42,389 nucleotides of DNA from Candidatus Micrarchaeota archaeon. GTDB taxonomy: Archaea; Micrarchaeota; Micrarchaeia; Norongarragalinales; Norongarragalinaceae. The notes beneath the pieces are model-generated. The model was given only the letters and a program-made list of their open reading frames with translations, had not been told where the DNA came from and made no database searches. Below, piece by piece: positions 3,925 to 38,703 of this stretch. Location: contig CAZWIQ010000003.1 of assembly GCA_964634375.1 (NCBI GenBank), positions 1 to 42,389 on the forward strand, given 5' to 3'. The number at the start of each line of letters is the position of its first letter. Position 1 is the stretch's first letter. The position numbers and the translations under genes were made by a program.

Positions 3925-6357
3925 ATGGCAAGCGAAATGAAGAATATTTACTGGTTTGAAGAGTTAGGCAAGGAAAACCTGCTTCAAGCGGGCGGGAAAG
4001 GCGCTAACCTCGGCGAAATGACGCGCGCGGGACTGCCCATCCCCCCGGGATTCATCGTCAGCGTAGGAGCCTACTACCGCGCCATCCGCGAAAACAACTT
4101 GGCTGGCTTCATCGAAGGCAAGTTGCGCAACCTCGACGTTCAAAACGCTGAAGCGCTGCAACGCGCGAGCGACGAAATCAAGGCGGCAATCGAGCGCGCC
4201 CCCGTTCCCGCGGACATCCGCACCGACATCGTGCGCGCCTACAACCGCATGTGCGGCGTAAGCGGGATTCCGAGCGCGAACCAGGAAATCCTCGTCGCGG
4301 TGCGCAGCAGCGCGACCGCCGAAGATTTGCCGACGGCTTCGTTCGCCGGGCAACAGGCGACTTTCCTGAACATGAAAGGCGCGGAACAAGTCGTCGACGC
4401 GGTGCGGCGCTGTTGGGCCTCGCTCTTCGAGGCGCGCGCGATTTACTACCGGAACGAGAACGGTTTTGAACACATGCGCGTTGGCTTGAGCGCCGTCATC
4501 CAAAAAATGATTCAAAGCGAGTCAAGCGGAGTAATGTTCACCGCCGACCCCGTGAGCGGCGACCGCTCGAAAATAATCATTGAAGCTGGGTTCGGGCTCG
4601 GCGAAGCCGTCGTGTCCGGGCAAATAACGCCCGACAACTACGTCGTCGACAAGGAAACGCTCAAGATTCTCGACAAATTCATTTCGCAACAGGAAATGAT
4701 GATTATTCGTTTGCCGAACGGCAAGACGGACCACGCGGACGTTCCAGAAGAAATCCAGGAAAAACAGAAAACGAACGACGACTTCATAGTGCAAATCGCG
4801 AAATTCGGGCGCAACATCGAAAAGCACTACGGTTACCCGCAAGACATCGAGTGGGCGGTAGAGAGAGGGCGCGTTTACATCACGCAAAGCCGCGCGATTA
4901 CGACGATCAAGGGGAAAGGCGAAGAAAGCGCGAAAAGCGAAGCAGCGCAAACGAAGCAAAGTGAAGCCAAGCCAAGCGAAGCCAAACCCCAAAGCGCGGC
5001 AGCAAGCGAAACCAAGGCCGGCGACGCGAAAGATGCGAAAGTAATCCTCAAGGGACTCGGCGCGAGCCCTGGAATCGCGAGCGGCGTCGTCCGCCTCGTA
5101 ACCGACAAAAACCAACTAGGAAAAATCGGGAAAGGCGACGTACTCGTAACCGAGATGACTAGCCCCGACTACGTTCCCGCGATGAAGCGCGCCTCGGCAA
5201 TCGTCACGGACGCGGGCGGAATGACGTGCCACGCCGCGATTGTAAGCCGTGAGCTAGGAATCCCGTGCATCGTTGGAAGCAAGACGGCGACGCGCGTTTT
5301 GAAAGATGGGCAGACGGTTACGGTCGACAGCAAGCGAGGCGTCGTCTACGACGGAAAAATCGCGCTCGAAGCAGAAACCGCGGCTGCAAGCGCTGGCGGA
5401 GCTCAAAGCCAAGCCACGACTATCGCCGCAGGAGGAGCGTATTCAACCGCAACGAAGATTTACGTCAACATAGCAGACGCGACGGTTGCTGAAAAAGTTG
5501 CCGGCAGGGACGTCGACGGAATAGGACTGCTTCGAGCCGAATTCATGATTGCGGGACTAGGGGTTCACCCGAACAAGCTCGCGAAAGACGGACGCGCAAA
5601 CGAGTTCGTCGACATGCTTGCCGAGAATCTCCGCAGAAGTTGCACCGCGTTCGACCCGCGCCCAGTGATTTACCGCGCGAACGACTTCAAGACTAACGAG
5701 TACCGCGGCTTGCCGGGCGGCGAGGAATTCGAGCCCAAGGAAGAAAACCCGATGATTGGTTACCGCGGGTGCGCGCGCTACGTCCGCGATCCGACCGTGT
5801 TCAAGATGGAAATTGAAGCCATCAAGAAAGTCCGCAACGAGTACGGACTCAAAAACTTGTGGCTCATGATTCCGTTCGTGCGAACAGTCGAGGAATTGCG
5901 AGAATGCAAACGCATTTGCGAGGAAAACGGGCTCAAGCGCTCGCGCGACTTCAAATTCGGAATAATGGCTGAAGTTCCGTCGGTTTCGATTGTTCCCGAG
6001 GAATTCTGCAAAGTCGGAATCGACTTCATGTCTATCGGGAGCAACGATTTATGCCAATTAGTGCTCGGCCTGGACCGCGATAATCAAACAATCGCCGACA
6101 GTTTCGACGAGCGCGACCCGGCGGTCGTCACGGCGATGAAAAACATTATTGAGACGTGCCACAAGTACGGAACGAAAGCGTCGATTTGCGGGCAGAGTCC
6201 AAGCACTTACCCTGAAATCGCCGAAGCGCTCGTCCGCTTCGGAATCGACAGCATGTCTGTGAACGTCGACGTCATCGAGAGGACGCGCAAATCGGTTGCG
6301 AGCGTTGAAAAGAAAATCCTGCTCGAGAGAAGCAAAAACGCCGCGGAAAAAGAGTAG
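3925..6357 (+). CDS. ppsA: Phosphoenolpyruvate synthase (pyruvate, water dikinase)
   Basis: N-terminus LGKENLLQAGGKGANLGEM..GLPIPPGF, phospho-His swivel motif GGMTCHAAIVSRELGIPCIVG and a C-terminal PEP-utilizer TIM domain. GAGGTGG lies 5 nt upstream of ATG 3925. Confidence 0.95.
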   Translation: MASEMKNIYWFEELGKENLLQAGGKGANLGEMTRAGLPIPPGFIVSVGAYYRAIRENNLAGFIEGKLRNLDVQNAEALQRASDEIKAAIERAPVPADIRTDIVRAYNRMCGVSGIPSANQEILVAVRSSATAEDLPTASFAGQQATFLNMKGAEQVVDAVRRCWASLFEARAIYYRNENGFEHMRVGLSAVIQKMIQSESSGVMFTADPVSGDRSKIIIEAGFGLGEAVVSGQITPDNYVVDKETLKILDKFISQQEMMIIRLPNGKTDHADVPEEIQEKQKTNDDFIVQIAKFGRNIEKHYGYPQDIEWAVERGRVYITQSRAITTIKGKGEESAKSEAAQTKQSEAKPSEAKPQSAAASETKAGDAKDAKVILKGLGASPGIASGVVRLVTDKNQLGKIGKGDVLVTEMTSPDYVPAMKRASAIVTDAGGMTCHAAIVSRELGIPCIVGSKTATRVLKDGQTVTVDSKRGVVYDGKIALEAETAAASAGGAQSQATTIAAGGAYSTATKIYVNIADATVAEKVAGRDVDGIGLLRAEFMIAGLGVHPNKLAKDGRANEFVDMLAENLRRSCTAFDPRPVIYRANDFKTNEYRGLPGGEEFEPKEENPMIGYRGCARYVRDPTVFKMEIEAIKKVRNEYGLKNLWLMIPFVRTVEELRECKRICEENGLKRSRDFKFGIMAEVPSVSIVPEEFCKVGIDFMSIGSNDLCQLVLGLDRDNQTIADSFDERDPAVVTAMKNIIETCHKYGTKASICGQSPSTYPEIAEALVRFGIDSMSVNVDVIERTRKSVASVEKKILLERSKNAAEKE

Positions 6358-6466
6358 AAACCGAAGACGCCGCGAAACTTGTTTGAACAAGGTTCAGCGG
6401 AGGCTTGGCGGCGCATTGGTTTTAAAGGCGCGCGCAAGTAAGTTTCCTCGCTGGTGGGAAAAAACC

Positions 6467-9259
6467 GTGTCTTCCGAAGCTGAAATCGAAGCCGCTAAAA
6501 AAACCGTCGCAACGCTGGTCGCCCAATTCGACGAAGTTGTCGCTAGCGGGCGGTTGAAAACCTTCAACGAGGAAAACACGAAGCGCGCTTTCATAACGCC
6601 CCTATTCCGAGCCCTCGGCTGGGCCGTCGAAACCGCCGGCGACGAAGTCACGAACGAAGACCGGGTCTCGAAAGGACGCGTCGATTATTCGTTTCGCTTG
6701 AACGGCATACCCAAATTCTTTTTGGAAGCCAAAGCCGCCAGCAAGGAACTCGAAGACAAAGACACCGAGCAAGCGATTAACTACGCTTACTACAAGACGA
6801 CGACTTGGGCAGTCCTCTCAAACTTCCGCACGCTCATAATCTACAACGCGGACTGGAAAGGAAAAGAAGCCAGCGACTTCCGCTTCATCCGCTTCGAATA
6901 CAAGGAATTCCTCGACCGATTCCCGCAACTCTGGCTCCTCTCGAAACCCGCGTTCCAACAAGGATTGCTCGACAAGGAAGCAGCCAACCTCGGCAAAAAA
7001 GACTACCGCCCGAAAGTAGGCGACTTGCTCCTCCAAGAACTAACCAAACAACGCGAAGCCCTCTCCAAAAACATCGTGAAAAACAACGCCAAGCGCGACT
7101 TAAGCGAGGCAGACGTTGACGAAGCAGTCCAACGCATCATCGACCGTCTAATCTTCATTCGAACTACGGAAGACCGCAACATCGAAGAACCCCGCCTCAA
7201 AACCCTCGCGCGCGAATTCGCGGGAGGCAAACGCGGCAAAGTCACTGCCGCGCTCAACGAGATTTACTTGAAGTACGACAAGACTTACAACAGCAAGCTC
7301 TTCACTTTCAAGCAAGAGGACGAAACCCAACGCCACTTGTGCGAAACCCTGGAAATCGACAACGAAACCCTCCTCAGCCTAATCGAAAACTTGATGAAAT
7401 ACGATTTCTCGGCGATTGACGCCGACGTCCTCGGCAACATTTACGAGCAATACTTAAGCCACATCTTGCGAAAGACTGAGAAGCGCGCGAAAGTCGAAAG
7501 CAAGGAAGCCCACCGCAAAGAACAAGGCATTTACTACACGCCGACTTACATCGTGGACTACATCGTGCGCAACACGCTCGGCGAAGCAATCAAAAACAAG
7601 AAGCCCGACGAAGTCGACGAGATTCGCGTTCTCGACATGGCTTGCGGCAGCGGCTCCTTCCTGCTCAAGGCTTTCGACGTTCTCGACGGCTACTACAAGA
7701 CTCACGACAAGCAATACGCGCAGTCCGCCCTTGACACCGCCACCGACGCCGCGAAAGTCACGCGCAAGACGAAGATTCTCCGCAACAACTTGTTTGGAGT
7801 CGACCTGGACCCTAAAGCCGTCGAAATCGCGCAGCTTAACCTGCTCCTCAAAGCCGCGGAGACGAAGCACCGCCTTCCGGACTTGCGTGAGAACGTCAAG
7901 CAGGGGAATTCGCTTATCGACCAAGCTCTGGGGGAGGATGCGCGGGCGCGTGCGTTTGACTGGAAGAAGGAATTCTCTGAAATCGTCGGCACTGGCGGTT
8001 TCGACGTCATCATCGGCAACCCGCCATACGTGAGCGGCTGGAACATGAGTTTAGAATTTCGCGACTGGATAAAAAAATCAGGCGCATATGCAACGGCGGA
8101 CAAGCATTGGGATATTTACGTTTTGTTTCTCGAACGAAGCATTAAACTAATGAAGAATGGCGCGCGGCTTGGAATGATTCTGCCATACTCTTTCCTTAAC
8201 CAAGCGTATGCACAAAAAATAAGAAGAATGATTTTAGACTCCTGTAAAATTCACGCAATAGTCGATTTGTCTGAAATCGATGTTTTTGCTGACGCGACCG
8301 TAAGAAATTGTATAATAATCTTAGAAAAAAACAATAAAACAGAAAACATTGTGACAATAATAAAAGCAAAGACTGCGGGCGGAATCAGCGAAACAATTGA
8401 ACACAAAATATCTCAAAAAACGTTCAACGAAACGCCAGAAAATATGTTCCGCGTCGATTTGCAACCACGCGACATCAAACTTATAGAAAAAATAAAAACC
8501 AAAAGCATAACACTCGATAAAATTGTTTATTCGACTACAGGGGTCGTCCCACACAGTGAAAAGGAAGGAAAGGGAAAGGAGGCATACATCTCGACTCAAA
8601 AAAAGAGTCAGAAGAGCGTTCCGTATATTGAAGGAAAAAATGTAAACAGATACCAAATAGATTACGACGGACGATTTCTCGAATACGACCCGGACATCGT
8701 TTACAGGCCGTCTTTACCAGAGCTGTTGAAACAACCTAAAATTCTAATAAAAAACGTCGTTGGAAAAAATGGAATTACGGCAACTTTTGACGACTTCGGC
8801 TATTTTACTAATGAAACAGTTAATTGTGTGACAACAAAAAATAAAATAGCTGGCGTTGAACGAAAAGACATTAGATTTTCAAAAAATGAGCTAAGTGAAA
8901 GTGAAAAATACGATTTGAAATTCATCTTAGGACTAATCAACTCTAAACTATCTAATTGGGTTTACCGAAAGATGATTAGCGGAGAACTACATTTCTATCC
9001 AAAGGACGTTAGATCGTTACTGGTGTTCGACATCGAAAAAAACCCAAATAAAAAAGAAGTAATTGAAATAGCCGCAGCTACCGATAAAATGCTAAAGCTA
9101 CATAAGAAACTTACTCCGAACACAGACAAGCAAACAGATGAGCGCACGCGGTTGGAGAAGGAAATCGCTGAGACGGATGCTCGGATTGACGACTTGGTTT
9201 TTGATTTGTACGGGTTGACGGCGGAAGAACGCCGAATCATCGAAGAGGCGGTAAAATGA
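6467..9259 (+). CDS. Type IIG restriction-modification enzyme (PD-(D/E)xK nuclease + gamma-class N6-adenine DNA methyltransferase + target-recognition domain)
   Basis: N-terminal nuclease-like GRVDYSF...FFLEAKAAS. MTase motif I is VLDMACGSGSFLL and motif IV is IIGNPPYV. A long C-terminal TRD follows. GTG 6467 is preceded by GGTGGG. The listed 6296-6466 extension overlaps ppsA and is Arg-rich. Confidence 0.85.
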   Translation: MSSEAEIEAAKKTVATLVAQFDEVVASGRLKTFNEENTKRAFITPLFRALGWAVETAGDEVTNEDRVSKGRVDYSFRLNGIPKFFLEAKAASKELEDKDTEQAINYAYYKTTTWAVLSNFRTLIIYNADWKGKEASDFRFIRFEYKEFLDRFPQLWLLSKPAFQQGLLDKEAANLGKKDYRPKVGDLLLQELTKQREALSKNIVKNNAKRDLSEADVDEAVQRIIDRLIFIRTTEDRNIEEPRLKTLAREFAGGKRGKVTAALNEIYLKYDKTYNSKLFTFKQEDETQRHLCETLEIDNETLLSLIENLMKYDFSAIDADVLGNIYEQYLSHILRKTEKRAKVESKEAHRKEQGIYYTPTYIVDYIVRNTLGEAIKNKKPDEVDEIRVLDMACGSGSFLLKAFDVLDGYYKTHDKQYAQSALDTATDAAKVTRKTKILRNNLFGVDLDPKAVEIAQLNLLLKAAETKHRLPDLRENVKQGNSLIDQALGEDARARAFDWKKEFSEIVGTGGFDVIIGNPPYVSGWNMSLEFRDWIKKSGAYATADKHWDIYVLFLERSIKLMKNGARLGMILPYSFLNQAYAQKIRRMILDSCKIHAIVDLSEIDVFADATVRNCIIILEKNNKTENIVTIIKAKTAGGISETIEHKISQKTFNETPENMFRVDLQPRDIKLIEKIKTKSITLDKIVYSTTGVVPHSEKEGKGKEAYISTQKKSQKSVPYIEGKNVNRYQIDYDGRFLEYDPDIVYRPSLPELLKQPKILIKNVVGKNGITATFDDFGYFTNETVNCVTTKNKIAGVERKDIRFSKNELSESEKYDLKFILGLINSKLSNWVYRKMISGELHFYPKDVRSLLVFDIEKNPNKKEVIEIAAATDKMLKLHKKLTPNTDKQTDERTRLEKEIAETDARIDDLVFDLYGLTAEERRIIEEAVK

Positions 9260-10641
9260 CTTTTTCGTTTGCCGACTTGCAGAAGTGGATTACTGAATGG
9301 GAAGGTCCAACGCTGGAGTTCAAGCTAAGGGTCAACGAAGACGCTGGGAACACGATTTCCGCGTTCGCCAACACCTTCGGCGGAACAATCGTTTTTGGGG
9401 TCGAATCCAAAAAAAAAGAATTAACGGGGTTAAGCAACGTCGACGAGGAAAGCCGGCGGCTGCGGCAAATCCTAGATTCCTGCAAGCCAAACCCAAAACC
9501 TGAAATAACCCACATCAAAGGAGAAGGAAAAACGTTTATCGCAGTCAGAGTCGAACAAATTGCTTATTCGCAGACGCCGTGCTTTTTCAAAAAACGCTGT
9601 TTCATAAGGCAAGGAACAACAAACCTAGAACTAGCGGGAGAAGAACTCATCGACTTTTTGAGAAAGCGAGCAATCCTTAATTTTGAGGAATCAAAAACCA
9701 GTGCCAGACTGCACGACTTGGATTTGGAGAAAATCAAGCGTTTTCTGAAGCAAAGGAAAACAAGTTATGAAAACCTAAATGAGGAAGAAACCAAGAGAAT
9801 TCTTGCGGGGCTAAGCGTAGCGAATTACAACGGAGAATTCTTTCTGAAAAACGTTGCGCTTCTTTTTTTCGCTAAAGACCCCCAAAAACTTTTTTCTAAT
9901 TTGGAGGCAAGAGTGGTCAGGTTCAAAGGAACAGAAGCAGAAGTAGGCGCAATCATTTTGGACAAACGCGTTTGCGGCACGATTCCGGAACTAATAAACG
10001 GAACTTACAAGCTTGTATCAGAAAATATTGGAAAAACCTTCAGATTAATCGGACCAGAGAGGAAGGAAATTCTGGACTACCCAGCCGAATCGCTTCGAGA
10101 GGTTATCACGAACTCGTTTGGACACCGGGACTACTTCGAAACAAAAGAAGTTTTAATCGAAATTTTTGAGGACAGACTAAGCATAACCAACCCAGGCGGG
10201 CTCCTACCTGGCCAAAATATTGCTAATTTCGACAAAACACCCCGCCATCGAAACCCAATAACCTATCGGTTGCTTCATGACCTAGGCTTGGGAGAAGGGC
10301 TCGGTCTCGGGGTCAGGTTGATTCGACGGCAATTTCGGGAAACCGGCTTGCCCGACCCAGAATTCTACGACGTTGGCAATGCGTTCCAAGTCGTTTTTTA
10401 CAATCATTCAAGCAAGAAGCCACGCCACGCAGTTGAATTTGAAAACGATAGGCAAAAGCAGGCGTTAGCTTACCTTCAAAAAAACAAGTCGATAAAATCG
10501 GCTGAATTCGCTCGCCTTGCGGGCGTTTCTATCCCAACAGCTCTTAAAGATTTGAAGGAATTGGAAAAGCAGGGCAAAATCAAAAAAATCGGAAAATACA
10601 AGGGGGCAAAATACGAATTGGAGAAACCTATAAAAACATAA
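9256..10641 (+). CDS. Schlafen-type AlbA_2 domain / HATPase_c_4 / C-terminal winged-HTH protein (COG2865-like)
   Basis: EGPTLEFKLRV....ISAFANTFGGTIVFGV is AlbA_2. HRDYFE...LSITNPGGL...RHRNP...GEGLGLGV is the RecG-C/HATPase_c_4-like part. C-terminal HTH is SAEFARLAGVSIPTALKDLKELEKQGKI. An ATGA overlap links it to the RM gene stop. Confidence 0.8.
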   Translation: MTFSFADLQKWITEWEGPTLEFKLRVNEDAGNTISAFANTFGGTIVFGVESKKKELTGLSNVDEESRRLRQILDSCKPNPKPEITHIKGEGKTFIAVRVEQIAYSQTPCFFKKRCFIRQGTTNLELAGEELIDFLRKRAILNFEESKTSARLHDLDLEKIKRFLKQRKTSYENLNEEETKRILAGLSVANYNGEFFLKNVALLFFAKDPQKLFSNLEARVVRFKGTEAEVGAIILDKRVCGTIPELINGTYKLVSENIGKTFRLIGPERKEILDYPAESLREVITNSFGHRDYFETKEVLIEIFEDRLSITNPGGLLPGQNIANFDKTPRHRNPITYRLLHDLGLGEGLGLGVRLIRRQFRETGLPDPEFYDVGNAFQVVFYNHSSKKPRHAVEFENDRQKQALAYLQKNKSIKSAEFARLAGVSIPTALKDLKELEKQGKIKKIGKYKGAKYELEKPIKT

Positions 10642-31212: not shown

Positions 31213-31716
31213 ATGAATTTGCGAGTCGCGGCGAACGCCGCAATGCTGTTCATCGCGAGCGCGCTCGTCGTTTACGGAATGAGTGGGTGGATTCACGCCT
31301 CGCTCGGCTGGAAGGAAAGCGTGCTAGGCGACGTTTGGAAACTAGTCGCCATCGCCGTAGCGCTCGCCATCGCCGCGGGTTACGCTTGGCCGCGAATGCG
31401 CGGCGTGCGCCGAGGAGACGTGCTGATAACGTTCGTCCGCCGCCACCAGCAAACGCCTTTCGGAGTCGCCACGATAAACGAGCCGGTGTTCGTCACCGCG
31501 CTCGAGAACGGCCGCGTGGGCAAGAAGATTCGCGTGAGCCTGCAAAACGGTTCTCTCGCGGAAGGAGTCATCGAGGAATACGCGGGAACTATTTCGCCGC
31601 CGAGCATCCGCCTGACTGAAACCGAGAATATCGGCGGAGCGGAAGTGCGGTTTGAAGGCGGCACTCGCGGCAAGCGCGGCAGCACCAACAATTACGGCGA
31701 ATACAAGGAAGAGTGA
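31213..31716 (+). CDS. Membrane protein (2 TM) with a soluble beta-rich C-terminal domain, function unknown
   Basis: AANAAMLFIASALVVYG and WKLVAIAVALAIAAGYAW are the TM segments. Its stop overlaps the possible GTG start of the next gene. Confidence 0.5.
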   Translation: MNLRVAANAAMLFIASALVVYGMSGWIHASLGWKESVLGDVWKLVAIAVALAIAAGYAWPRMRGVRRGDVLITFVRRHQQTPFGVATINEPVFVTALENGRVGKKIRVSLQNGSLAEGVIEEYAGTISPPSIRLTETENIGGAEVRFEGGTRGKRGSTNNYGEYKEE

Positions 31717-31721
31717 TTGAG

Positions 31722-32315
31722 ATGGCGAGCAAAATAGGATTGTTTTCGTTCAGCGCGGTCGAAGTCACGCACATACTCGTTTCCGTAATCACGATTTCCC
31801 TCGCGTTCTCGTTGTTCAAAGGAGACAACTACGTCTTCGACCCGAACTACTTCCTCGTCGTCCTCATCGCAGTCGGCAGCGCGTTCATTTTGCACGAGCT
31901 AGGGCACCGCACTGTCGCGCGCTCGTACGGCGTGCACAGCGAATACCGAGCGTGGACGTGGGGGTTGTTCCTCGCGATACTCATGGCGTTCGTCACGCGC
32001 GGCGCATTCGTTTTCGCGGCGCCGGGCGCGGTCTACATTTTCGGCCGCGTTTCGCGCGAGCAAAACGGGAAAATCTCGATTGCCGGCCCACTTACGAATC
32101 TCCTCGTCGCACTCGCTTTCCTCGCGTTGTTCTTCATCACGCCTTACAAGGAACTGTGCGCGACGGCGGCGTACGTCAACGTGCTCCTCGGCTCGTTCAA
32201 CATGCTTCCCTTCGGTCCGCTAGATGGAACGAAAATCGCTGCTTGGAACAGCCGCGCGTGGGGCTTGCTTTTCGCCGGCTTCCTCGCGTTGTTCCTCGCC
32301 ATGGCGTTTGTTTGA
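31722..32315 (+). CDS. M50 (site-2 protease) family zinc metalloprotease
   Basis: HELGHRTVA (HExxH) in a TM helix, and NMLPFGPLDG (NxxPxxxLDG). An alternative start is GTG 31713, which overlaps the upstream TGA. Confidence 0.8.
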   Translation: MASKIGLFSFSAVEVTHILVSVITISLAFSLFKGDNYVFDPNYFLVVLIAVGSAFILHELGHRTVARSYGVHSEYRAWTWGLFLAILMAFVTRGAFVFAAPGAVYIFGRVSREQNGKISIAGPLTNLLVALAFLALFFITPYKELCATAAYVNVLLGSFNMLPFGPLDGTKIAAWNSRAWGLLFAGFLALFLAMAFV

Positions 32316-32322
32316 ACGCGGT

Positions 32323-32346
32323 TTTAGCGCGCGCTTGAGCGCTAAA
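32323..32346 (+). terminator. 8-bp stem hairpin (TTTAGCGC-N8-GCGCTAAA) flanked by T-run and A-run just after the M50 gene
   Basis: Read directly from the sequence. The T-tract lies 5' and the A-tract 3' on the plus strand, so terminator function on the plus strand is uncertain. Confidence 0.3.
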
Positions 32347-32439
32347 AAAACGGCGTAAAATCAACGGCAAAGTAGTTACGAAAAGTATTTAAAGCCCAGT
32401 CCGCTAGCACTAAAACGCCGAAAAAAAACGGCGCACGAC

Positions 32440-32455
32440 AATCAATATATTGTGG
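32440..32455. promoter_or_regulatory. NrdR-box-like operator 1 (AATCAATATATTGTGG)
   Basis: 13 of 16 matches by hand to the bacterial NrdR-box consensus acaCwAtATaTwGtgt. It contains the perfect 10-bp palindrome CAATATATTG. Confidence 0.6.
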
Positions 32456-32472
32456 CTGGGCAGGCGCGCAAA

Positions 32473-32488
32473 GCGCCATATATAGTGT
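32473..32488. promoter_or_regulatory. NrdR-box-like operator 2 (GCGCCATATATAGTGT), overlapping the TATA-like element
   Basis: 13 of 16 matches to the same consensus, with a perfect right half-site TATAGTGT. Its centre is 33 bp from box 1. ATATATAG is the best TATA candidate upstream of the nrd ORF. Confidence 0.6.
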
Positions 32489-32601
32489 TTTCAAAGCGAA
32501 AATAGCGGCAAGCTAGCAACCCGTTTTTTCGTCGTTTGACGATAAAAAACAGCGGAAAACCGGGTTTTCTGGGTTTCGGGTTTGAACGGAGTTGGTGGAA
32601 A

Positions 32602-35214
32602 TTGAAGTGTCCTTATTGCGGGAATCCGGAAACGAGCGTCGTCGACTCGCGCGACGCTGAAGCCGACGAGAAGACGCGGCGCAGGCGCGAGTGCAAGAAT
32701 TGCGGCAAGCGCTTCACGACTTACGAGGAAGCCGCGCTCGAGTTGTTCGTGCTCAAGAAAAGCGGGAGGCGCGAGCCTTTCGACCGCAAGAAGATTAAAA
32801 ACGGCGTGGAACACGCTTGCTTCAAGCGCCCCGTCTCCGAGGAAAAAATCGATTCGCTAGTCGACGAAGTCGAACGCGAGCTGCGCTCGCGCGACGTCAG
32901 CGAGATTCCGAGCCGCGACATCGGCGAACTCGTGATGGACAAGCTGCGCGGCGTCGACGAAGTCGCTTACATTAACTTCGCGAGCGTTTACAGGCAGTTC
33001 CGCGATTTGACTGCGCTCGAACGCGAAATCAAGGCGCTGCGCGTCGTGCGCGAGGAAAGCGAAGGCGAAGCGCAAGCGAAAGACTCGACTGATTTCATGC
33101 AGCTCATAGTTGAAAGCCCTACGCAAGGCATCGCGCAGCTTTGGGACAGGACGCGAATAACGGAAGCGCTCGTCAAGGAAACGGGGCTCGCGCAAGCAGA
33201 GGCGGAAGACATCGCTCTCGCGGTCGAGCGGCGCTTGTCGGTTTCGGGAATGAAGAGCATCAGCGTGTCGCTGATTCGCGAACTCGTGAACAACGAATTG
33301 TTCGAGCGCGGGCACAAGCGCAAGCTAAGCAAGCAAGAAATTTTGGGAATCGCCGTTTACAACCTCAACCAATTGATTTTCGCGAAGAGCAACGAGAACA
33401 GCAACATCATGGCGAACAACCCCGAGGCGGTGAATCTCGCAATCGCGGAAACCGTGCTGAAACAATACGCGTTGAAGGAAGTTTTTTCGCGGGAAGTAAG
33501 CGAAGCGCACCTCAGCGGAGCAGTCTACCTCCACGACTTGGGTTACATCGTCCGCACGTACTGCTCCGGTCACAGCCCGGAATACATCAAGAAATACGGC
33601 TTGCAGTTGATGAACCTCGCGTCGCACTCTTACCCGGCGAAACACGCCGCGACGCTCACGGGCCACCTCAACACTTTCCTCGCCTCGATGCAGGCGAATT
33701 ACGCGGGCGCGCTCGGGCTCGCTTACCTCAACGTTTTTTACGCGCCGTTGCTCCGCGGCTTGAGTTACGAAGAGTTGAAGCAGCACGCGCAACACCTGAT
33801 TTTCGCGTTCTCGCAAAACGCTTTTTCGCGCGGCTCCCAAACGCTTTTCATCGACATCAACCTGCACTTCGGAGTTCCCGATTATCTCCGCGGCGTGCCC
33901 GCGATTGGCGAGGGAGGAAAATACATGCTGCAGCGGCCGAACGGCGAAGTCGAACGCCTCGACGACGTGCCTCGAGACGCGCAAGGAAAGCTCGTGCAGC
34001 CGAGCGACGCGGCGCGCGACGGGCGCATTCTCACTTACGCGGACTACGAGCGCGAAGCCCAGCAGTTCACGCGCGCGCTCCTCGAAATCGCTCGGAAGGG
34101 CGACAGCGAAGGCAAACCCTTCGCTTTCCCGAAACTAAACTGCCACGTCGACGCCGCGACTTTCGCCGACGCGGCGCAAGACGAGCTCCTGCGCTTCGCT
34201 TGCGGCGTGAGCGCCGCTAACGGCGCGCCTTACTTCATTTTCGACCGGGAGGCGGCAACGCTGAGCCAGTGCTGCCGCTTGAAAACGAAAATCGAGGACC
34301 CGTGGCTGCTCAATCACCCGGAAAGCATTCGGTTCTGCGGATTCCAAATCGTAACGATCAACCTTCCGCAGGCGGCTTACCGCGCCGCGCAAGCAAGCGA
34401 GAAAGTCGGAGCGAAGCCGACCGTGGAAAGCGTCGTGCGCGAAGTCGAGTGGGCGATGGACACCGCGATGAAGGCGCACTTGCAGAAAAGAAAGTTCATC
34501 CAAAAAATCATGAGCAGCCCGGGAACGCCGTTGTGGACTGTCGGCGCGCCTGCCGCTGACGGCAAACCTTACCTCGACCTCGACAAGGCGAGTTACATCA
34601 TCGGCATGATCGGGCTCAACGAGTGCGTGAAAACGATTACGGGGCAAGCGCTTCACGAAAGCGACGCCGCCTTTCGAGTCGGCGTGCGCGTAATCGCGGC
34701 GATGCACTTGAAAGCGAAGGCGCTGGAAGCCGAACACAAGATGAAGGTGGTGCTCGAGGAAACGCCTGCGGAGAGCGCGAGCCTGCGGCTCGCGAGAATC
34801 GACCTCCAACGCTTTCCTCAGTACGCGCGCGGGCTCGTGCGCGGCAACGCTGAAACCGGCGAAGTCTATTATACCAACAGTATTCACTTGCAGGCTGACG
34901 CGCCAGTCGACATCATTGAACGCATTGAAAAGCAAGCGGTCTTCAACAACTTGATCGAAGCCGGCTGCATCACGCACGTATTCCTCGGCGAACAACAGCC
35001 TAGCCCCGAGAGCGTTTACGCGCTCGTGCGCCGCACGTGGGAAAACACCCAGAGCGCGCAAATCGTTGTTTCGCCGGAATTCACCGTCTGCAACGACTGC
35101 GGCGCGGTGAGCCGCGGCTTCAACCGCGATACTGAAGCGCCAGTAAAACAAGCAACGCAGGCAGCGCCAAGCCAAGCGAAGGGCGACGTGGTGTTCGAGA
35201 AAATAACTAGATGA
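32602..35214 (+). CDS. nrdD: Fusion protein: NrdR module (zinc ribbon + ATP-cone) - second ATP-cone - class III (anaerobic) ribonucleoside-triphosphate reductase NrdD core, lacking the glycyl-radical tail
   Basis: (M)KCPYCGNPETSVVDSRDAE...RRRRECKNCGKRFTTYE plus an ATP-cone (FDRKKI...VAYINFASVYRQF) forms the NrdR module. A linker and a second ATP-cone (WDRTRITEAL...) follow, then the NrdD core (GAVYLHDLGY..., ...EFTVCNDCG). TTG 32602 is preceded by GGAGTTGGTGG. Confidence 0.85.
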   Translation: MKCPYCGNPETSVVDSRDAEADEKTRRRRECKNCGKRFTTYEEAALELFVLKKSGRREPFDRKKIKNGVEHACFKRPVSEEKIDSLVDEVERELRSRDVSEIPSRDIGELVMDKLRGVDEVAYINFASVYRQFRDLTALEREIKALRVVREESEGEAQAKDSTDFMQLIVESPTQGIAQLWDRTRITEALVKETGLAQAEAEDIALAVERRLSVSGMKSISVSLIRELVNNELFERGHKRKLSKQEILGIAVYNLNQLIFAKSNENSNIMANNPEAVNLAIAETVLKQYALKEVFSREVSEAHLSGAVYLHDLGYIVRTYCSGHSPEYIKKYGLQLMNLASHSYPAKHAATLTGHLNTFLASMQANYAGALGLAYLNVFYAPLLRGLSYEELKQHAQHLIFAFSQNAFSRGSQTLFIDINLHFGVPDYLRGVPAIGEGGKYMLQRPNGEVERLDDVPRDAQGKLVQPSDAARDGRILTYADYEREAQQFTRALLEIARKGDSEGKPFAFPKLNCHVDAATFADAAQDELLRFACGVSAANGAPYFIFDREAATLSQCCRLKTKIEDPWLLNHPESIRFCGFQIVTINLPQAAYRAAQASEKVGAKPTVESVVREVEWAMDTAMKAHLQKRKFIQKIMSSPGTPLWTVGAPAADGKPYLDLDKASYIIGMIGLNECVKTITGQALHESDAAFRVGVRVIAAMHLKAKALEAEHKMKVVLEETPAESASLRLARIDLQRFPQYARGLVRGNAETGEVYYTNSIHLQADAPVDIIERIEKQAVFNNLIEAGCITHVFLGEQQPSPESVYALVRRTWENTQSAQIVVSPEFTVCNDCGAVSRGFNRDTEAPVKQATQAAPSQAKGDVVFEKITR

Positions 35215-35227
35215 GGTGAAAGCAACA

Positions 35228-35461
35228 ATGACGGAAGAAAAGACAGTTCATGGTCCCCACTGTCCTCACTGCGGCAGCGAAAACGTTTTCGGGATATCGC
35301 GCGTAGTCGGCTACTTCAGCCGAATCAACAACTGGAACAAGAGCAAGACCGCCGAATTCAAGGACAGGCAAAAAGGAAATTACGCCGTCCCGCAAACCGC
35401 GAAAGCGGTGGACGCAGAATTCGACTCGAAAGCGCTGACGCAGAAAGCCAAGTGCGCGTGA
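35228..35461 (+). CDS. Stand-alone glycyl-radical C-terminal piece of NrdD (77 aa)
   Basis: HCPHCGSENVFGISRVVGYFSRINNWNKSKTAEFKDRQ is the second Zn Cys pair plus the RVxGY glycyl-radical motif of class III RNR. GAGGTGA lies 8 nt upstream of ATG 35228. The ORF is in a different frame from the large ORF. Confidence 0.8.
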   Translation: MTEEKTVHGPHCPHCGSENVFGISRVVGYFSRINNWNKSKTAEFKDRQKGNYAVPQTAKAVDAEFDSKALTQKAKCA

Positions 35462-35505
35462 GCGCGCGAATGCGCGGGCGCGCGAGGATGCGCGAGCGTG
35501 AGTTC

Positions 35506-35763
35506 ATGCCGAAAGTAAAGATTTTCTGGAAGGAAACTTGCCCGAACTGCCCGGCGGCGAAAGAGTTAGGCAAACGGCTGGCGGCTGAAGGCGCCGTCGT
35601 CGAATTCCTCAACGTCAAGGACGCCGACGGGCTCACGGAAGCCGTGCTTCACGGAGTCATGGCGACGCCGAGCGTCGCCGTCGTCGCGGACGACGGAACG
35701 GAGAAAACCGTGTGGCGCGGCGCCACCCCGAAGCTCGACGAAGTCAAGGAAGCACTCAAGTAA
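35506..35763 (+). CDS. Small glutaredoxin/NrdH-like thioredoxin-fold redoxin
   Basis: KVKIFWKETCPNCPAAKEL...GVMATPSV is a CxxC redoxin with cis-Pro context, 85 aa long. Confidence 0.8.
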   Translation: MPKVKIFWKETCPNCPAAKELGKRLAAEGAVVEFLNVKDADGLTEAVLHGVMATPSVAVVADDGTEKTVWRGATPKLDEVKEALK

Positions 35764-35836: not shown

Positions 35837-36061
35837 TTGGCGCGGAAGGAATTCATTTTTTCGAAGCACTACCGCGAAGACAAGGACATCGACGTAAGCC
35901 TTGCAGTAGACTGCATTCACACGGGAAAAAAGGAACCGGAAGAAGAACCGAACAAATTCAAGGCGCGGAAAAACTACCGGAAAGGCGAGTTAATCGTCGT
36001 TTTCAAGGACTGCGGCGAGTATTTTTTCGTGGTAACCGCTTTTTGGAACGTCAGGAAATGA
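35837..36061 (+). CDS. DUF4258-like putative toxin (74 aa)
   Basis: FIFSKHYREDKDIDVSLAVDCIHTGKK...GELIVVFKDCGEYFFVVTAFW fits the DUF4258 pattern (f.S.H.......I......i..G, then l.VV.....i.VvTay) from memory. TTG start. Confidence 0.45.
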   Translation: MARKEFIFSKHYREDKDIDVSLAVDCIHTGKKEPEEEPNKFKARKNYRKGELIVVFKDCGEYFFVVTAFWNVRK

Positions 36062-36082
36062 GAAAGCAAGGGAGTGATGGGC

Positions 36083-36409
36083 ATGGCTTTGAATCTCGAC
36101 GGAAAAAAGTGTTGCGCGTGCGGCAAAGGCAGGCTCCGCAAGATTCAGGATGAAATCGAACCCGGCATTTTCGTCGAAGCGTTCAAGTGCAGTGAATGCA
36201 ACGAAATCGTTTACCCCCAGCATGTCATGGAAAAAGTGGAGGCGTTGTACCGCGACAAAGCTGCCGAACGCAGTTTAATCAAAGTCGGCGCTAGCTTGGC
36301 GTTCGCGATTCCGAGCGAAATCGTGAAAAAACTGGGGTTGCGTCCGAAGGAAAAAGTTTTCATTACGAGCAAGGGAAACGAAATCATCGCGCGCGTTTCC
36401 CAAGCGTGA
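36083..36409 (+). CDS. Putative antitoxin: MqsA/YgiT-like zinc ribbon fused to an AbrB/SpoVT-type DNA-binding domain
   Basis: CCACGKGRL...FKCSECNEIV, then IKVGASLAFAIPSEIVKKLGLRPKEKVFI. GGGAGTGA lies upstream. Alternative starts are at 36074 and 36077. Confidence 0.55.
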   Translation: MALNLDGKKCCACGKGRLRKIQDEIEPGIFVEAFKCSECNEIVYPQHVMEKVEALYRDKAAERSLIKVGASLAFAIPSEIVKKLGLRPKEKVFITSKGNEIIARVSQA

Positions 36410-36437
36410 AAAACTAGTTTCAACATGGCGACGAATA

Positions 36438-36995
36438 ATGGGTTTGGGTAGCGTTAGAAACGCGGCAGCCATTCTGCGGCAAGAAAAGTACGCGAGCGTA
36501 TTGCGCCTAAGAGACACGGAGATAATACCCCGCGGAAGTTGGCTGGGCATACTCGTTCCAGCAAGAGGATACGAACGCATTTCCAGAGAAGACTTATTGA
36601 GGCCAAGGTGCATCGCTAAAAGAATACCCGCACTGCCGTTAGCGACTGAATTAGGAGACGCTTTAAGGCGAGAAGAATTTGCGCCTATCGTCGAGGTAGG
36701 CAACGAGGCACGCGCGGAAGGACGCATGAGATTCTATCACGAGCTTGTAGCAAAAGAGTTACCTGAAGAAGTTCAAAAAAGAATGAAAAAATTAGGAGAA
36801 GAACAAGAAAAAGCAAGAACACGTTGCGGGCAGTCCACTGGCGATGCGCCTTCACATAAACAGAGTTGGAAAATAGCCGACAGGAATGCAAAGGCGCTAT
36901 TCGCGTTGGCGCAAGACCCGCCCGATTACGAACCTTTGTTGGCTGCGCTTAAAACGCTTACGGCGCGGGCAATGACGGTGAAGGCTAAGAGTTGA
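36438..36995 (+). CDS. Hypothetical protein (185 aa), no recognisable domain
   Basis: The ORF fills the gap between the antitoxin and nrdG on the same strand. It appears lower in GC than the backbone (not counted). Coding status is uncertain. Confidence 0.35.
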   Translation: MGLGSVRNAAAILRQEKYASVLRLRDTEIIPRGSWLGILVPARGYERISREDLLRPRCIAKRIPALPLATELGDALRREEFAPIVEVGNEARAEGRMRFYHELVAKELPEEVQKRMKKLGEEQEKARTRCGQSTGDAPSHKQSWKIADRNAKALFALAQDPPDYEPLLAALKTLTARAMTVKAKS

Positions 36996-37001
36996 ACAAA
37001 C

Positions 37002-37715
37002 ATGCTCGACATCAAAGGATTAATGCCTACGTCGCTAATCGAATACCCCGGCAAAATCGCCGCCGTCGTCTTCTTGAACGGCTGCAACTTCCGTTGCCCC
37101 TTCTGCCAAAACGCGAGCCTCGCCCTCGGCACCGAGCAAGCGCCGTCGATTCCTCGCGAGCAAGTCCTGAACTTTCTCAAAAGCCGCAAGAAGTGGCTCG
37201 ACGGAGTCGCGATAACGGGAGGCGAACCAACGCTCGCGGGAAGCGAGTTAATCGACTTCATCAAGGAAGTCAAGGCGCTCGGCTTCGCGGTCGAACTCGA
37301 GACGAACGGCTCCAGCCCCGAACTGCTTCACGAACTCATGAAAAACCGTCTCGTCGATTACTACGCGATGGACTACAAGGCGCCGCTCGACGATTACGAC
37401 CGCGTCACTGGAACGAAAGTCGATAAGGATAAAATCAAGGAAAGCGCGAAAATGCTGATTCGGGAACAAGAAAGCGCTTGCTTTGATTACGAGTTCCGCG
37501 CAACCGTCGTACCAAGGCTGTTCGACGAGCGCACCGCGTTGCGCGTAGCGCAAGAACTCAAAGGCGCGCGCCGATTTTTCCTGCAGCAGTTTCAAGCGCG
37601 CGATTGCCTCGACGCCTCGTTCAACAAGCTCGCCGCGTTTCCGCCGAAGCGCCTGCAGGAATTCGCGCAAATCATGAAGCCTTTCATCGCGGAAGTCAAA
37701 ACGCGCGGAACCTAA
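37002..37715 (+). CDS. nrdG: Anaerobic ribonucleotide reductase activating protein (radical SAM)
   Basis: SLIEYPGKIAAVVFLNGCNFRCPFCQN (CxxxCxxC), GVAITGGEPTL, and an archaeal NrdG-type length and layout. Confidence 0.9.
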   Translation: MLDIKGLMPTSLIEYPGKIAAVVFLNGCNFRCPFCQNASLALGTEQAPSIPREQVLNFLKSRKKWLDGVAITGGEPTLAGSELIDFIKEVKALGFAVELETNGSSPELLHELMKNRLVDYYAMDYKAPLDDYDRVTGTKVDKDKIKESAKMLIREQESACFDYEFRATVVPRLFDERTALRVAQELKGARRFFLQQFQARDCLDASFNKLAAFPPKRLQEFAQIMKPFIAEVKTRGT

Positions 37716-37788
37716 TTTTCTTTCAGATACAATTCACTGGAAGGCTACCTCCGAAAAACAATTGAATTCGCTCGGCATAACCAATCAC

Positions 37789-38703
37789 ATGACTGCAGCA
37801 ATCAAAAATTATGACGACCCGAATTACCTAATCGAACAACTTGAAACAAAAAACTATTTGGAAATAGCGAGAGAAAACAAGGTCGGCAAATCCACAATCC
37901 AACGAAAGCTTAACGCGTTTGGTTTGACGAGAAAAACAAGCGATTGGGCTCCTGAAGAAATAAGGTGCCTAACCAGAAATTATGAATCCGCGGCAATCCA
38001 CAAGCTGTTCCCAGACAGAACAAAAAGTTCCGTTTATCATGAAGCCAATCGCATTGGAGTAAGTAAAGATTCTTGGGGACGGGAGTATAGCGTCAACGAA
38101 AACTTCTTCGAACACCGGAATAGAGAATCCGCGTATTTTCTGGGTTGGATGTACAGCGACGGAAATGTTTCGAAAGACTACAAACGATTTGGGCTTCACC
38201 TCCAAACGGGAGATATAGAAATTCTCAGAAAAATGAAGCGAGCCCTCAAAAGCGAACACAAAATCAAGACCTACAAAAACTCCGCTACGTTTTACGTTCA
38301 CGATAAAAAAATGTGCAGAAGTTTAGCAAAATTGGGTTGCGGACCTCGAAAAACCTTGAAGATACGACTGCCAAAAATTCCGAAACGCTTTCTGAACCAT
38401 TTCGTTAGGGGCTATTTTGACGGAGATGGCAGCATCATGTTTAATTACCCGAACACGATAAAAATTAGGTTCGTAGGATACGAAAAATTTTTGGCGGATT
38501 TAGCCGAAAAAATACGGAAACGGCTCAGAATCCCAACACCGAAAATAACGAAAAGTAATAAGGGAAACGTCTGGAGCGTCAACTACTACGGGGATAACGC
38601 CAGAAAAATTTGTTTTTGGATGTACTCCGGCGCGGGAAATCTCGTTTTGAAAAGAAAGAAAAAGAGATTCGAAAAACACATGAGAATAAGGGATGCTAAA
38701 TGA
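37789..38703 (+). CDS. Free-standing double-motif LAGLIDADG homing endonuclease with an N-terminal HTH
   Basis: The two LAGLIDADG motifs are YFLGWMYSDGNV and FVRGYFDGDGSI. The HTH is IARENKVGKSTIQRKLNAFGL. A hand count gives 23/60 GC in 38281-38340. An ATGA overlap links it to pth2. Confidence 0.8.
   Translation: MTAAIKNYDDPNYLIEQLETKNYLEIARENKVGKSTIQRKLNAFGLTRKTSDWAPEEIRCLTRNYESAAIHKLFPDRTKSSVYHEANRIGVSKDSWGREYSVNENFFEHRNRESAYFLGWMYSDGNVSKDYKRFGLHLQTGDIEILRKMKRALKSEHKIKTYKNSATFYVHDKKMCRSLAKLGCGPRKTLKIRLPKIPKRFLNHFVRGYFDGDGSIMFNYPNTIKIRFVGYEKFLADLAEKIRKRLRIPTPKITKSNKGNVWSVNYYGDNARKICFWMYSGAGNLVLKRKKKRFEKHMRIRDAK

Follow-up and report, generated by a model that had tools for sequence, protein, structure and literature searches.

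The window analysed here is a 42,389-bp stretch of a contig from a Candidatus Micrarchaeota archaeon. It encodes a protein in which NrdR, the repressor of bacterial ribonucleotide reductase (RNR) genes, is fused to the N-terminus of the class III RNR catalytic subunit NrdD. The spacer ahead of this gene carries two 16-bp sequences resembling the operator boxes of bacterial NrdR. The spacer is 286 bp long, lies between an M50-peptidase gene (31713-32315) and the nrdR-nrdD open reading frame (ORF), and is the sole intergenic region ahead of the nrd cluster; the box pair sits 114-162 bp upstream of the nrdR-nrdD start codon. The window contains the archaeal genes Cdc48, ABCE1/RLI, Hjc and PTH2, and the nearest homologues (84-90% identity) are annotated as Candidatus Norongarragalinales or Micrarchaeota. 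The boxes and the genes of the cluster are as follows.

32440-32455, unstranded: NrdR box 1, AATCAATATATTGTGG; 13/16 matches to the consensus, 16.01 bits against a position weight matrix (PWM), six key positions present.
32456-32472, unstranded: linker between the boxes, 17 bp; length kept, sequence not.
32473-32488, unstranded: NrdR box 2, GCGCCATATATAGTGT; 13/16 matches to the consensus, PWM score 16.45 bits, six key positions present.
32602-35214, plus strand: nrdR-nrdD fusion ORF, 870 amino acids, TTG start giving MKCPYCG; the start-codon column is kept in relatives.
35216-35461, plus strand: small separate ORF for the C-terminal glycyl-radical part of NrdD (CPHCG...RVVGY; positions 521-561 of the Pfam NRDD profile).
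35452-35763, plus strand: thioredoxin-like gene of the nrd cluster (PF13192, 3.8e-9), syntenic in relatives.
37002-37715, plus strand: NrdG-type radical-SAM activase (PF04055 and PF13353).

Each box differs from the NrdR-box consensus ACACWATATATWGTGT at three positions, and a mismatch count in the window confirmed the sequences, coordinates and 13 of 16 matches given by the initial annotation. On both strands of the window these two are the only sites with three or fewer mismatches, against an expectation of 0.05, and none of 100 shuffles contained two or more such sites. All six highly conserved NrdR-box positions defined in a 2026 mutational study (C4, A6, A8, T9, T11 and G13; PMC13584703) are present in both boxes. 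The annotated spacing of 33 bp between box centres was likewise correct, the starts being the same distance apart. It corresponds to a 17-bp linker, 1-2 bp above the usual 15-16 bp and inside the 14-17 bp range bound well by tested NrdRs, for which a functional range of 24-27 bp is also reported (PMC12051234). For DNA with a 17-bp linker, the reported Kd is 1 nM for Listeria NrdR, 45 nM for the E. coli protein and 21 nM for that of Streptomyces, and linkers of 15-17 bp support repression in vivo (PMC12051234). When the window was scanned with a PWM built from 54 boxes at other loci, the window and its close relatives being left out, the next best site after the two boxes scored 9.58 bits, more than 6 bits below both. 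A score of at least 16 bits has a probability of ~1e-6 per position, and the number of tandem pairs expected in the window is 2e-7 at the window's own composition and 1.5e-5 at 35% GC. A control sequence of 1.05 Mb yielded four single sites only at this threshold. Given their uniqueness by consensus, the gap in PWM score and the tandem-pair expectation, we consider the boxes real and not a chance match.

Four close relatives (L081, L083, L084 and L085; 84-90% protein identity) share the gene order M50 peptidase, spacer, nrdR-nrdD, and their spacers were aligned with that of the window. Pairwise identity across the five sequences is 0.80 in box 1 and 0.84 in box 2, while the linker diverges to 0.35, with no gaps and no invariant column. 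This is the conservation at orthologous loci by which the initial annotation had wished its boxes to be judged. Substitutions inside the boxes fall mostly at positions that are free in the NrdR logo and are non-compensatory (CAACGTATTG in L081; A5/A12 in L083 and L084). In bacterial operators, too, the length of the linker matters and its sequence does not (PMC13584703). The aligned footprint is that of a putative protein-binding site whose linker counts by length alone, and the pattern supports selection on the boxes.

The protein encoded downstream has the parts that such a site would call for. A zinc ribbon (amino acids 1-42, 32602-32727; Pfam PF22811, 1.8e-18) is followed by an NrdR-type ATP-cone (amino acids 49-135, 32746-33006; PF03477, 2e-30) and the NrdD core (amino acids 265-836, 33394-35109; PF13597, 1.8e-108), and amino acids 1-146 align full-length to the NrdR structures from E. 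coli (9fxk, E 2e-34) and S. coelicolor (7p37, 4e-34). The window protein holds the four zinc cysteines in two CxxC motifs (C3, C6, C31 and C34), D15, R17, RRRR at 26-29, and R37. Across 16 diverse fusions C3, C6, C31, C34, R17, R27-29 and R37 are invariant, and D15 is kept in at least 90%. In the cryo-EM structure of an NrdR-DNA complex, D15 and R17 make base-specific contacts and R26-29 and R37 contact the backbone (PMC9110341). The module thus has the zinc ribbon, the ATP-cone and the DNA-specificity and backbone-contact residues of the NrdR family. It does not stand alone, as family members of ~150-200 amino acids normally do, and runs into NrdD without a stop codon, as it does in more than 50 loci. 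The NRDD core, the RVxGY-type glycyl-radical segment on its separate ORF and the activase nearby identify the enzyme as a class III RNR. Retention of the contact residues and zinc cysteines bears out the earlier proposal that the NrdR module of this ORF has kept its DNA-binding function, as far as sequence can indicate. We take the fused module to be what most likely binds the boxes, because a purely allosteric ATP-cone would not need the contact residues, and because boxes and fusion co-occur.

Two further properties of the enzyme were noted. NrdD is split, so that its C-terminal zinc-site and glycyl-radical segment forms a separate ORF of 68-87 amino acids after a gap of 1-82 bp; the same split is found in L081, in L083-L085 and in loci from Bathyarchaeia (L166), Heimdallarchaeota (L168) and Micrarchaeia (L169). 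NrdD of an Aenigmatarchaeota homologue (P0042) is unsplit, and the small ORF of the window aligns to its amino acids 829-889. By analogy, the separate ORF recalls a detachable ‘spare-part’ subunit such as GrcA. Between the NrdR module and the NrdD core, amino acids ~180-260 (33130-33390; WDRTRITEAL...SLIRELVNNELFERG) resemble a degenerate second ATP-cone of the RNR type, aligning weakly with residues 52-246 of Prevotella copri NrdD (domain E = 0.002).

The distribution of tandem boxes was examined in 166 loci totalling 1.12 Mb. Among the matches listed from a genome collection scanned with the full-length fusion alignment, bacterial stand-alone nrdR predominated and archaeal loci were few; these matches served as bacterial controls. 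The architecture of zinc ribbon, ATP-cone and NRDD is common, with matches including Micrarchaeia, Aenigmatarchaeota, Asgard/Heimdallarchaeota and Bathyarchaeia; bacterial fusions among the matches listed come from Planctomycetota, Synergistaceae and bacteria related to Verrucomicrobiota. When the 1.12 Mb were searched by consensus alone, 41 tandem pairs emerged, 38 of which sit 54-253 bp upstream of an nrdR-bearing gene. Counts by PWM (a tandem pair of at least 18 bits, no more than 350 bp upstream) are given below. They carry some circularity, since the upstream pairs used to train the matrix had originally been picked out by the published consensus; the consensus-only count is free of this problem.

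nrdR-nrdD fusion loci: 50/58 with a pair.
Loci with nrdR directly ahead of nrdD: 14/19 with a pair.
NrdD loci without a zinc ribbon: 0/4 with a pair.
Stand-alone nrdR loci (mostly bacterial): 9/71 with a pair.
Control sequence, 1.0 Mb: 4 loci with a pair.

Named archaeal genomes with tandem boxes come from Bathyarchaeia (L166), Heimdallarchaeota (L168), Micrarchaeia (L169, 1.3 Mb) and Aenigmatarchaeota (L171). Because the boxes keep so closely to nrdR-bearing genes in both domains, archaeal replication-origin (ORB) repeats and a chance palindrome were rejected as explanations. Some close homologues have a separate nrdR immediately upstream of nrdD, behind sigma-70-type promoters; the loci cited for these and for bacterial fusions are L097, L099, L103, L105, L112, L122, L127, L138, L141, L144 and L164, and L001-L005. 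In bacterial relatives with adjacent nrdR and nrdD, box 1 directly adjoins TTGACA, and the linker begins with a TATAAT-like hexamer. On this comparison the operator is what appears to have been kept while the surrounding basal promoter was exchanged. Since both separate-nrdR homologues and bacterial fusions exist, the fusion probably goes back to an nrdR-nrdD operon and has passed between domains.

The basal promoter of the window is predicted upstream of the boxes, and three elements were recognised there.

32371-32379, plus strand: conserved upstream element AGTAGTTAC, directly 5′ of the transcription factor B (TFB) recognition element (BRE); GTAGTyAC in all five sequences.
32380-32393, plus strand: predicted core promoter, BRE-like GAAAAG and TATA box TATTTAAA (32386-32393), 46 bp upstream of box 1.
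32415-32420, plus strand: predicted transcription start zone, from the usual archaeal TATA spacing.

The BRE/TATA segment has a pairwise identity of 0.84, with 11 of 17 columns invariant across the five sequences. GAAAAG-TATTTAAA matches the genome's own promoter motif, AAA-N2-4-TTTAAA, which precedes the start codons at 649, 22881, 24213 and 39130 by 20-33 nt. Archaeal start sites usually lie ~23-26 nt from the TATA box. The conserved BRE/TATA at 32380-32393 most likely directs transcription, and box 1, beginning 46 bp past the predicted TATA, would then lie at about +21 or later. The operator as a whole would span ~+21 to +74 in the window and ~+11 to +64 in three relatives. The gap between BRE/TATA and box 1 is 46-47 bp in the window and L081 and 36-37 bp in L083-L085. 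This difference is a single indel of ~10 bp (window 32394-32439), or one helical turn, which suggests that helical phasing between promoter and putative operator is constrained. A canonical TATA box was found upstream of box 1, and never in box 2, in all other archaeal NrdR-NrdD lineages examined, at the following distances.

L169 and L171: TATA ATTTATAA and TTTAAATA, gap to box 1 of 0-3 bp.
Most Micrarchaeia- and Aenigmatarchaeota-like loci: TATA cTTTATATAtaa and CTATATAA, gap 14-17 bp.
L096-type loci: TATA ATTTTAAA, gap 21 bp.
L145, L166 and L168: TATA TTTATATA, gap 24-25 bp.
L148: TATA TTTATATA, gap 38 bp.

From the usual TATA-to-start spacing, box 1 in most other archaeal lineages would coincide with the predicted start site or follow it closely. 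The view that bacterial-type tandem NrdR boxes occupy an archaeal promoter region is supported. The upstream element AGTAGTTAC has two exact copies in the window (0.04 expected), at 32371-32379 (+) and 21483-21491 (-). The second copy is followed after ~10 nt by a TATA-like element, ahead of a regulator gene (20398-21399, minus strand; 333 amino acids) with two winged-helix (HTH_24/AsnC-type) domains; the element may be a second regulatory input.

Downstream of the boxes the predicted leader has conserved elements of its own, of which the block at 32489-32508 and the T-run with its hairpin are no less conserved than the boxes.

32489-32508, plus strand: conserved leader block TTTCAAAGCGAAAATAGCGG, immediately 3′ of box 2; identity 0.85, 12/20 columns invariant.
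32523-32549, plus strand: near-invariant T-run and small predicted CGTC/GACG hairpin, GTTTTTTCGTCGTTTGACGATAAAAAA; 18/23 columns invariant.
32588-32598, plus strand: Shine-Dalgarno-like GGAGTTGGTGG, preceding the TTG at 32602.

GGAG or GGAGGT lies 5-14 nt ahead of the NTG-AAG-TGY start in four of the five aligned spacers, and L081 has GAGAGGT. The 5′ half of the T-run and hairpin shows 93% complementarity to 32413-32426, where transcription is predicted to start, and the two arms bracket the boxes; L083 breaks this long-range pairing without compensation. A consensus fold of the five sequences gave invariant stems and no informative covariation, because the stems do not vary in sequences so nearly identical, and the minimum free energy of the leader has a z-score of -1.9. 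Rfam searches of the whole window at gathering thresholds and of 32300-32640 at permissive settings, and a tRNA scan, returned nothing meaningful; the sole Rfam match was sub-threshold (Atu_C9, 16.6 bits against a gathering score of 40). A search of the window for the invariant leader motif TTTCGTCGTTTGACG recovered the original site and chance-level matches only. In an archaeal leader an oligo-T run could bring transcription to an end, and the alternative pairings resemble those of an attenuator. The T-run with its hairpin may serve as attenuator or terminator, or as a further site for a protein to bind.

We consider it likely that the boxes form a functional NrdR operator of the nrd cluster, and that the repressor is most probably the N-terminal NrdR module of NrdD itself. 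Four other explanations were weighed against this one. The initial annotation had taken ATATATAG within box 2 as the best TATA candidate for nrd and reasoned that occupancy of the box would compete with TATA-binding protein (TBP) and TFB. The core of the box is indeed TATA-like. In L169 box 1 touches or overlaps the TATA box ATTTATAA, and in L171 a gap of 2-3 bp separates box 1 from a TATA box upstream; direct competition between NrdR and TBP is therefore plausible in some archaea. For the window the idea is improbable, and box 2 is not the best TATA candidate: the 5′ flank of box 2 is GC-rich (GCGCAAAGCGCC) and lacks an A-rich BRE, whereas the genome's promoters pair a TTTAAA-type TATA with one; a better, conserved BRE/TATA stands 46 bp upstream of box 1, in agreement with the other archaeal lineages; and the conservation of box 2 tracks the NrdR consensus positions. 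Box 1 was rejected as a TATA box on the same grounds as box 2 (no BRE, unlike the genome's TATA type, a conserved canonical promoter upstream). The palindromes might instead act in RNA, as hairpins of a structured 5′ leader or attenuator. They would be transcribed if the start lies near 32417, and the leader offers the invariant T-run and hairpin and a 14-nt complementarity that brackets the boxes. This we regard as very unlikely, given that the box substitutions are non-compensatory, that the linker varies freely, that the leader fold is unremarkable and has no Rfam match, and that the same boxes occupy untranscribed positions between -35 and -10 in bacterial relatives.

The operator could also be genuine and yet bound by a separate, stand-alone NrdR encoded elsewhere, the fused module being merely an allosteric ATP-cone. 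The visible genome amounts to 42 kb, and stand-alone nrdR genes are present, among the matches listed, in other DPANN archaea, namely Woesearchaeota (L017 and L056) and Nanobdellati (L026). We judge this unlikely: invariance of the zinc cysteines and DNA-contact residues across the fusions is unexpected for a purely allosteric domain, the boxes track the zinc ribbon (50 of 58 fusion loci against none of four loci without it), and neither the window nor ~48 kb of relatives' contigs contains a second NrdR. Lastly, the boxes could match by chance, or be a relic in decay that came in with a bacterial nrdR-nrdD gene by horizontal transfer; the occurrence of the fusion in several groups of bacteria makes such transfer plausible. 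Set against the chance expectation of at most 1.5e-5, the persistence of the boxes while linker and flanks diverge, and their presence in several archaeal lineages, all of which have an archaeal-type TATA of their own ahead of the boxes, this explanation is so improbable as to be negligible.

If the boxes are an operator served by the fused NrdR module, regulation might proceed as follows. The operator would control the cluster of nrdR-nrdD, the glycyl-radical subunit and thioredoxin, possibly with nrdG, and the gene product would repress its own operon once dATP accumulates. By analogy with bacterial NrdR, an assembly loaded with dATP and ATP would present four zinc ribbons, as two pairs, to boxes separated by three helical turns, bind both of them and sharply bend or kink the operator DNA; ATP alone would favour non-binding oligomers and so release the operator. 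As the operator lies downstream of the BRE/TATA, repression would more likely act through blocked recruitment of RNA polymerase, promoter escape or early elongation than through displacement of TBP. dATP drives tetramerisation of Prevotella copri NrdD (PMC11226230). As a speculative extension, one dATP-induced NrdD tetramer could both inactivate the enzyme and form the DNA-binding unit.

Several observations weigh against an autoregulatory operator of this kind. NrdR binding, transcripts and start sites in archaea are predictions from sequence here, as are the nucleotide dependence, the oligomeric state and the sign of regulation. In this clade the operator lies 36-47 bp downstream of the TATA box, farther than classic archaeal repressor sites, and this unusual distance makes the mechanism of repression uncertain. 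Fusion to an enzyme of ~720 amino acids might hinder the tetramer geometry of free NrdR, and position 12, a backbone-contact R or K in bacterial NrdRs, is S in the window protein. Coverage of the genome is 42 kb, so other operators or a stand-alone NrdR may lie elsewhere. To the circularity of the PWM counts must be added that many metagenomic loci are assigned to a domain by similarity to named proteins and by promoter type. Allowing for these points, we lean towards the more general proposal that the NrdD catalytic subunit itself is a dATP/ATP-sensing repressor of its own operon in Micrarchaeia, Aenigmatarchaeota, Heimdallarchaeota/Asgard, Bathyarchaeia and some bacteria, the bacterial NrdR operator having been re-mounted behind an archaeal BRE/TATA.

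Other features of the window concern the surroundings of the cluster. In L081, L083 and L085, nrdG directly follows the thioredoxin-like gene. In the window three small ORFs, one of them MazE/AbrB-type antitoxin-like (36074-36409), lie between the two (35837-36995); L084 has a smaller, similar insertion of two small ORFs that includes the MazE-like one, and L081, L083 and L085 have none. A free-standing LAGLIDADG-like ORF (37762-38703) is located directly 3′ of nrdG, and in some homologous NrdR-NrdD proteins (P0037, P0039 and P0043) intein/LAGLIDADG domains are found inside the enzyme. Farther away, 6296-10641 is a low-GC island (GC 0.38-0.44 between 8 and 11 kb), probably a defence island acquired horizontally; its products are a Type IIG Eco57I/MmeI-like restriction-methylase fusion and a protein with Schlafen/AlbA_2, HATPase_c_4 and helix-turn-helix (HTH) domains.

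If NrdD does repress its own operon, and if dATP oligomerises the fusion, a single assembly would couple allosteric shut-off of the enzyme to transcriptional shut-off. The locus and its relatives offer a compact natural system that combines a single polypeptide with a single operator and a single canonical archaeal promoter. The system is suited to asking how an archaeal promoter is controlled by a repressor of bacterial type that bends DNA and senses nucleotides, and could show whether one dATP-dependent assembly switches both enzyme activity and gene expression. Scanning for NrdR boxes also provides a route to annotating RNR regulons in uncultured archaea.

Single polypeptides that are both an enzyme and a metabolite-responsive repressor of their own operon are known in PutA, BirA and NadR. 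Their folds and ligands are unrelated to those of the fusion described here, in which, by analogy with NrdR, the ATP-cone would read dATP/ATP and the zinc ribbon would bind DNA. Among archaeal repressors, MDR1, LrpA, Phr and NrpR have operators at or downstream of the TATA box or start site, where the expected effect is to block recruitment of RNA polymerase and not binding of TBP/TFB. These are HTH, winged HTH or ribbon-helix-helix proteins, and the operator of the window clade is placed one to two helical turns farther downstream than is typical for them. A close likeness is to bacterial NrdR operators such as those of S. coelicolor nrdRJ and of E. coli or Listeria nrdDG, which have two partially palindromic 16-bp boxes with the same six positions, box centres about three helical turns apart and a linker constrained in length and free in sequence. 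In these cases, too, the RNR operon behind the operator includes the coding sequence of the NrdR module and is thereby autoregulated (PMC13584703, PMC9110341, PMC12051234); in S. coelicolor nrdRJ, nrdR is co-transcribed with its target and autoregulated. The present locus differs from them in having a BRE/TATA promoter instead of -35/-10 elements, boxes downstream of the TATA and predicted start instead of overlapping -35/-10, a linker of 17 bp and not 15-16 bp, and a repressor module covalently fused to the NrdD catalytic subunit.

Published work regards NrdR as an essentially bacterial protein: it has been described as ‘rare in archaea’, as present in 22% of archaeal genomes (2026 paper) and, in one preprint, as absent, and these accounts do not say how it would act on the archaeal transcription machinery. 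In the openly searchable literature, subscription papers falling outside it, no paper turned up on NrdR-NrdD fusions, on NrdR in DPANN archaea or on the placement of NrdR boxes in archaeal promoters. An archaeal NrdR homologue linked to an RNR operon has a precedent in Halobacteria, where stand-alone NrdR is encoded in nrdR-nrdB-nrdA and nrdR-nrdA-nrdB operons acquired from bacteria (PMC3019208); the text retrieved describes no operator for them. The halobacterial case concerns separate genes, a class I RNR and Euryarchaeota, in contrast to the fusion to class III NrdD in DPANN, Asgard and Bathyarchaeia considered here. Relative to these known systems the operator and the sensor are the same, and what is new is the fusion to NrdD and the archaeal basal-promoter context.

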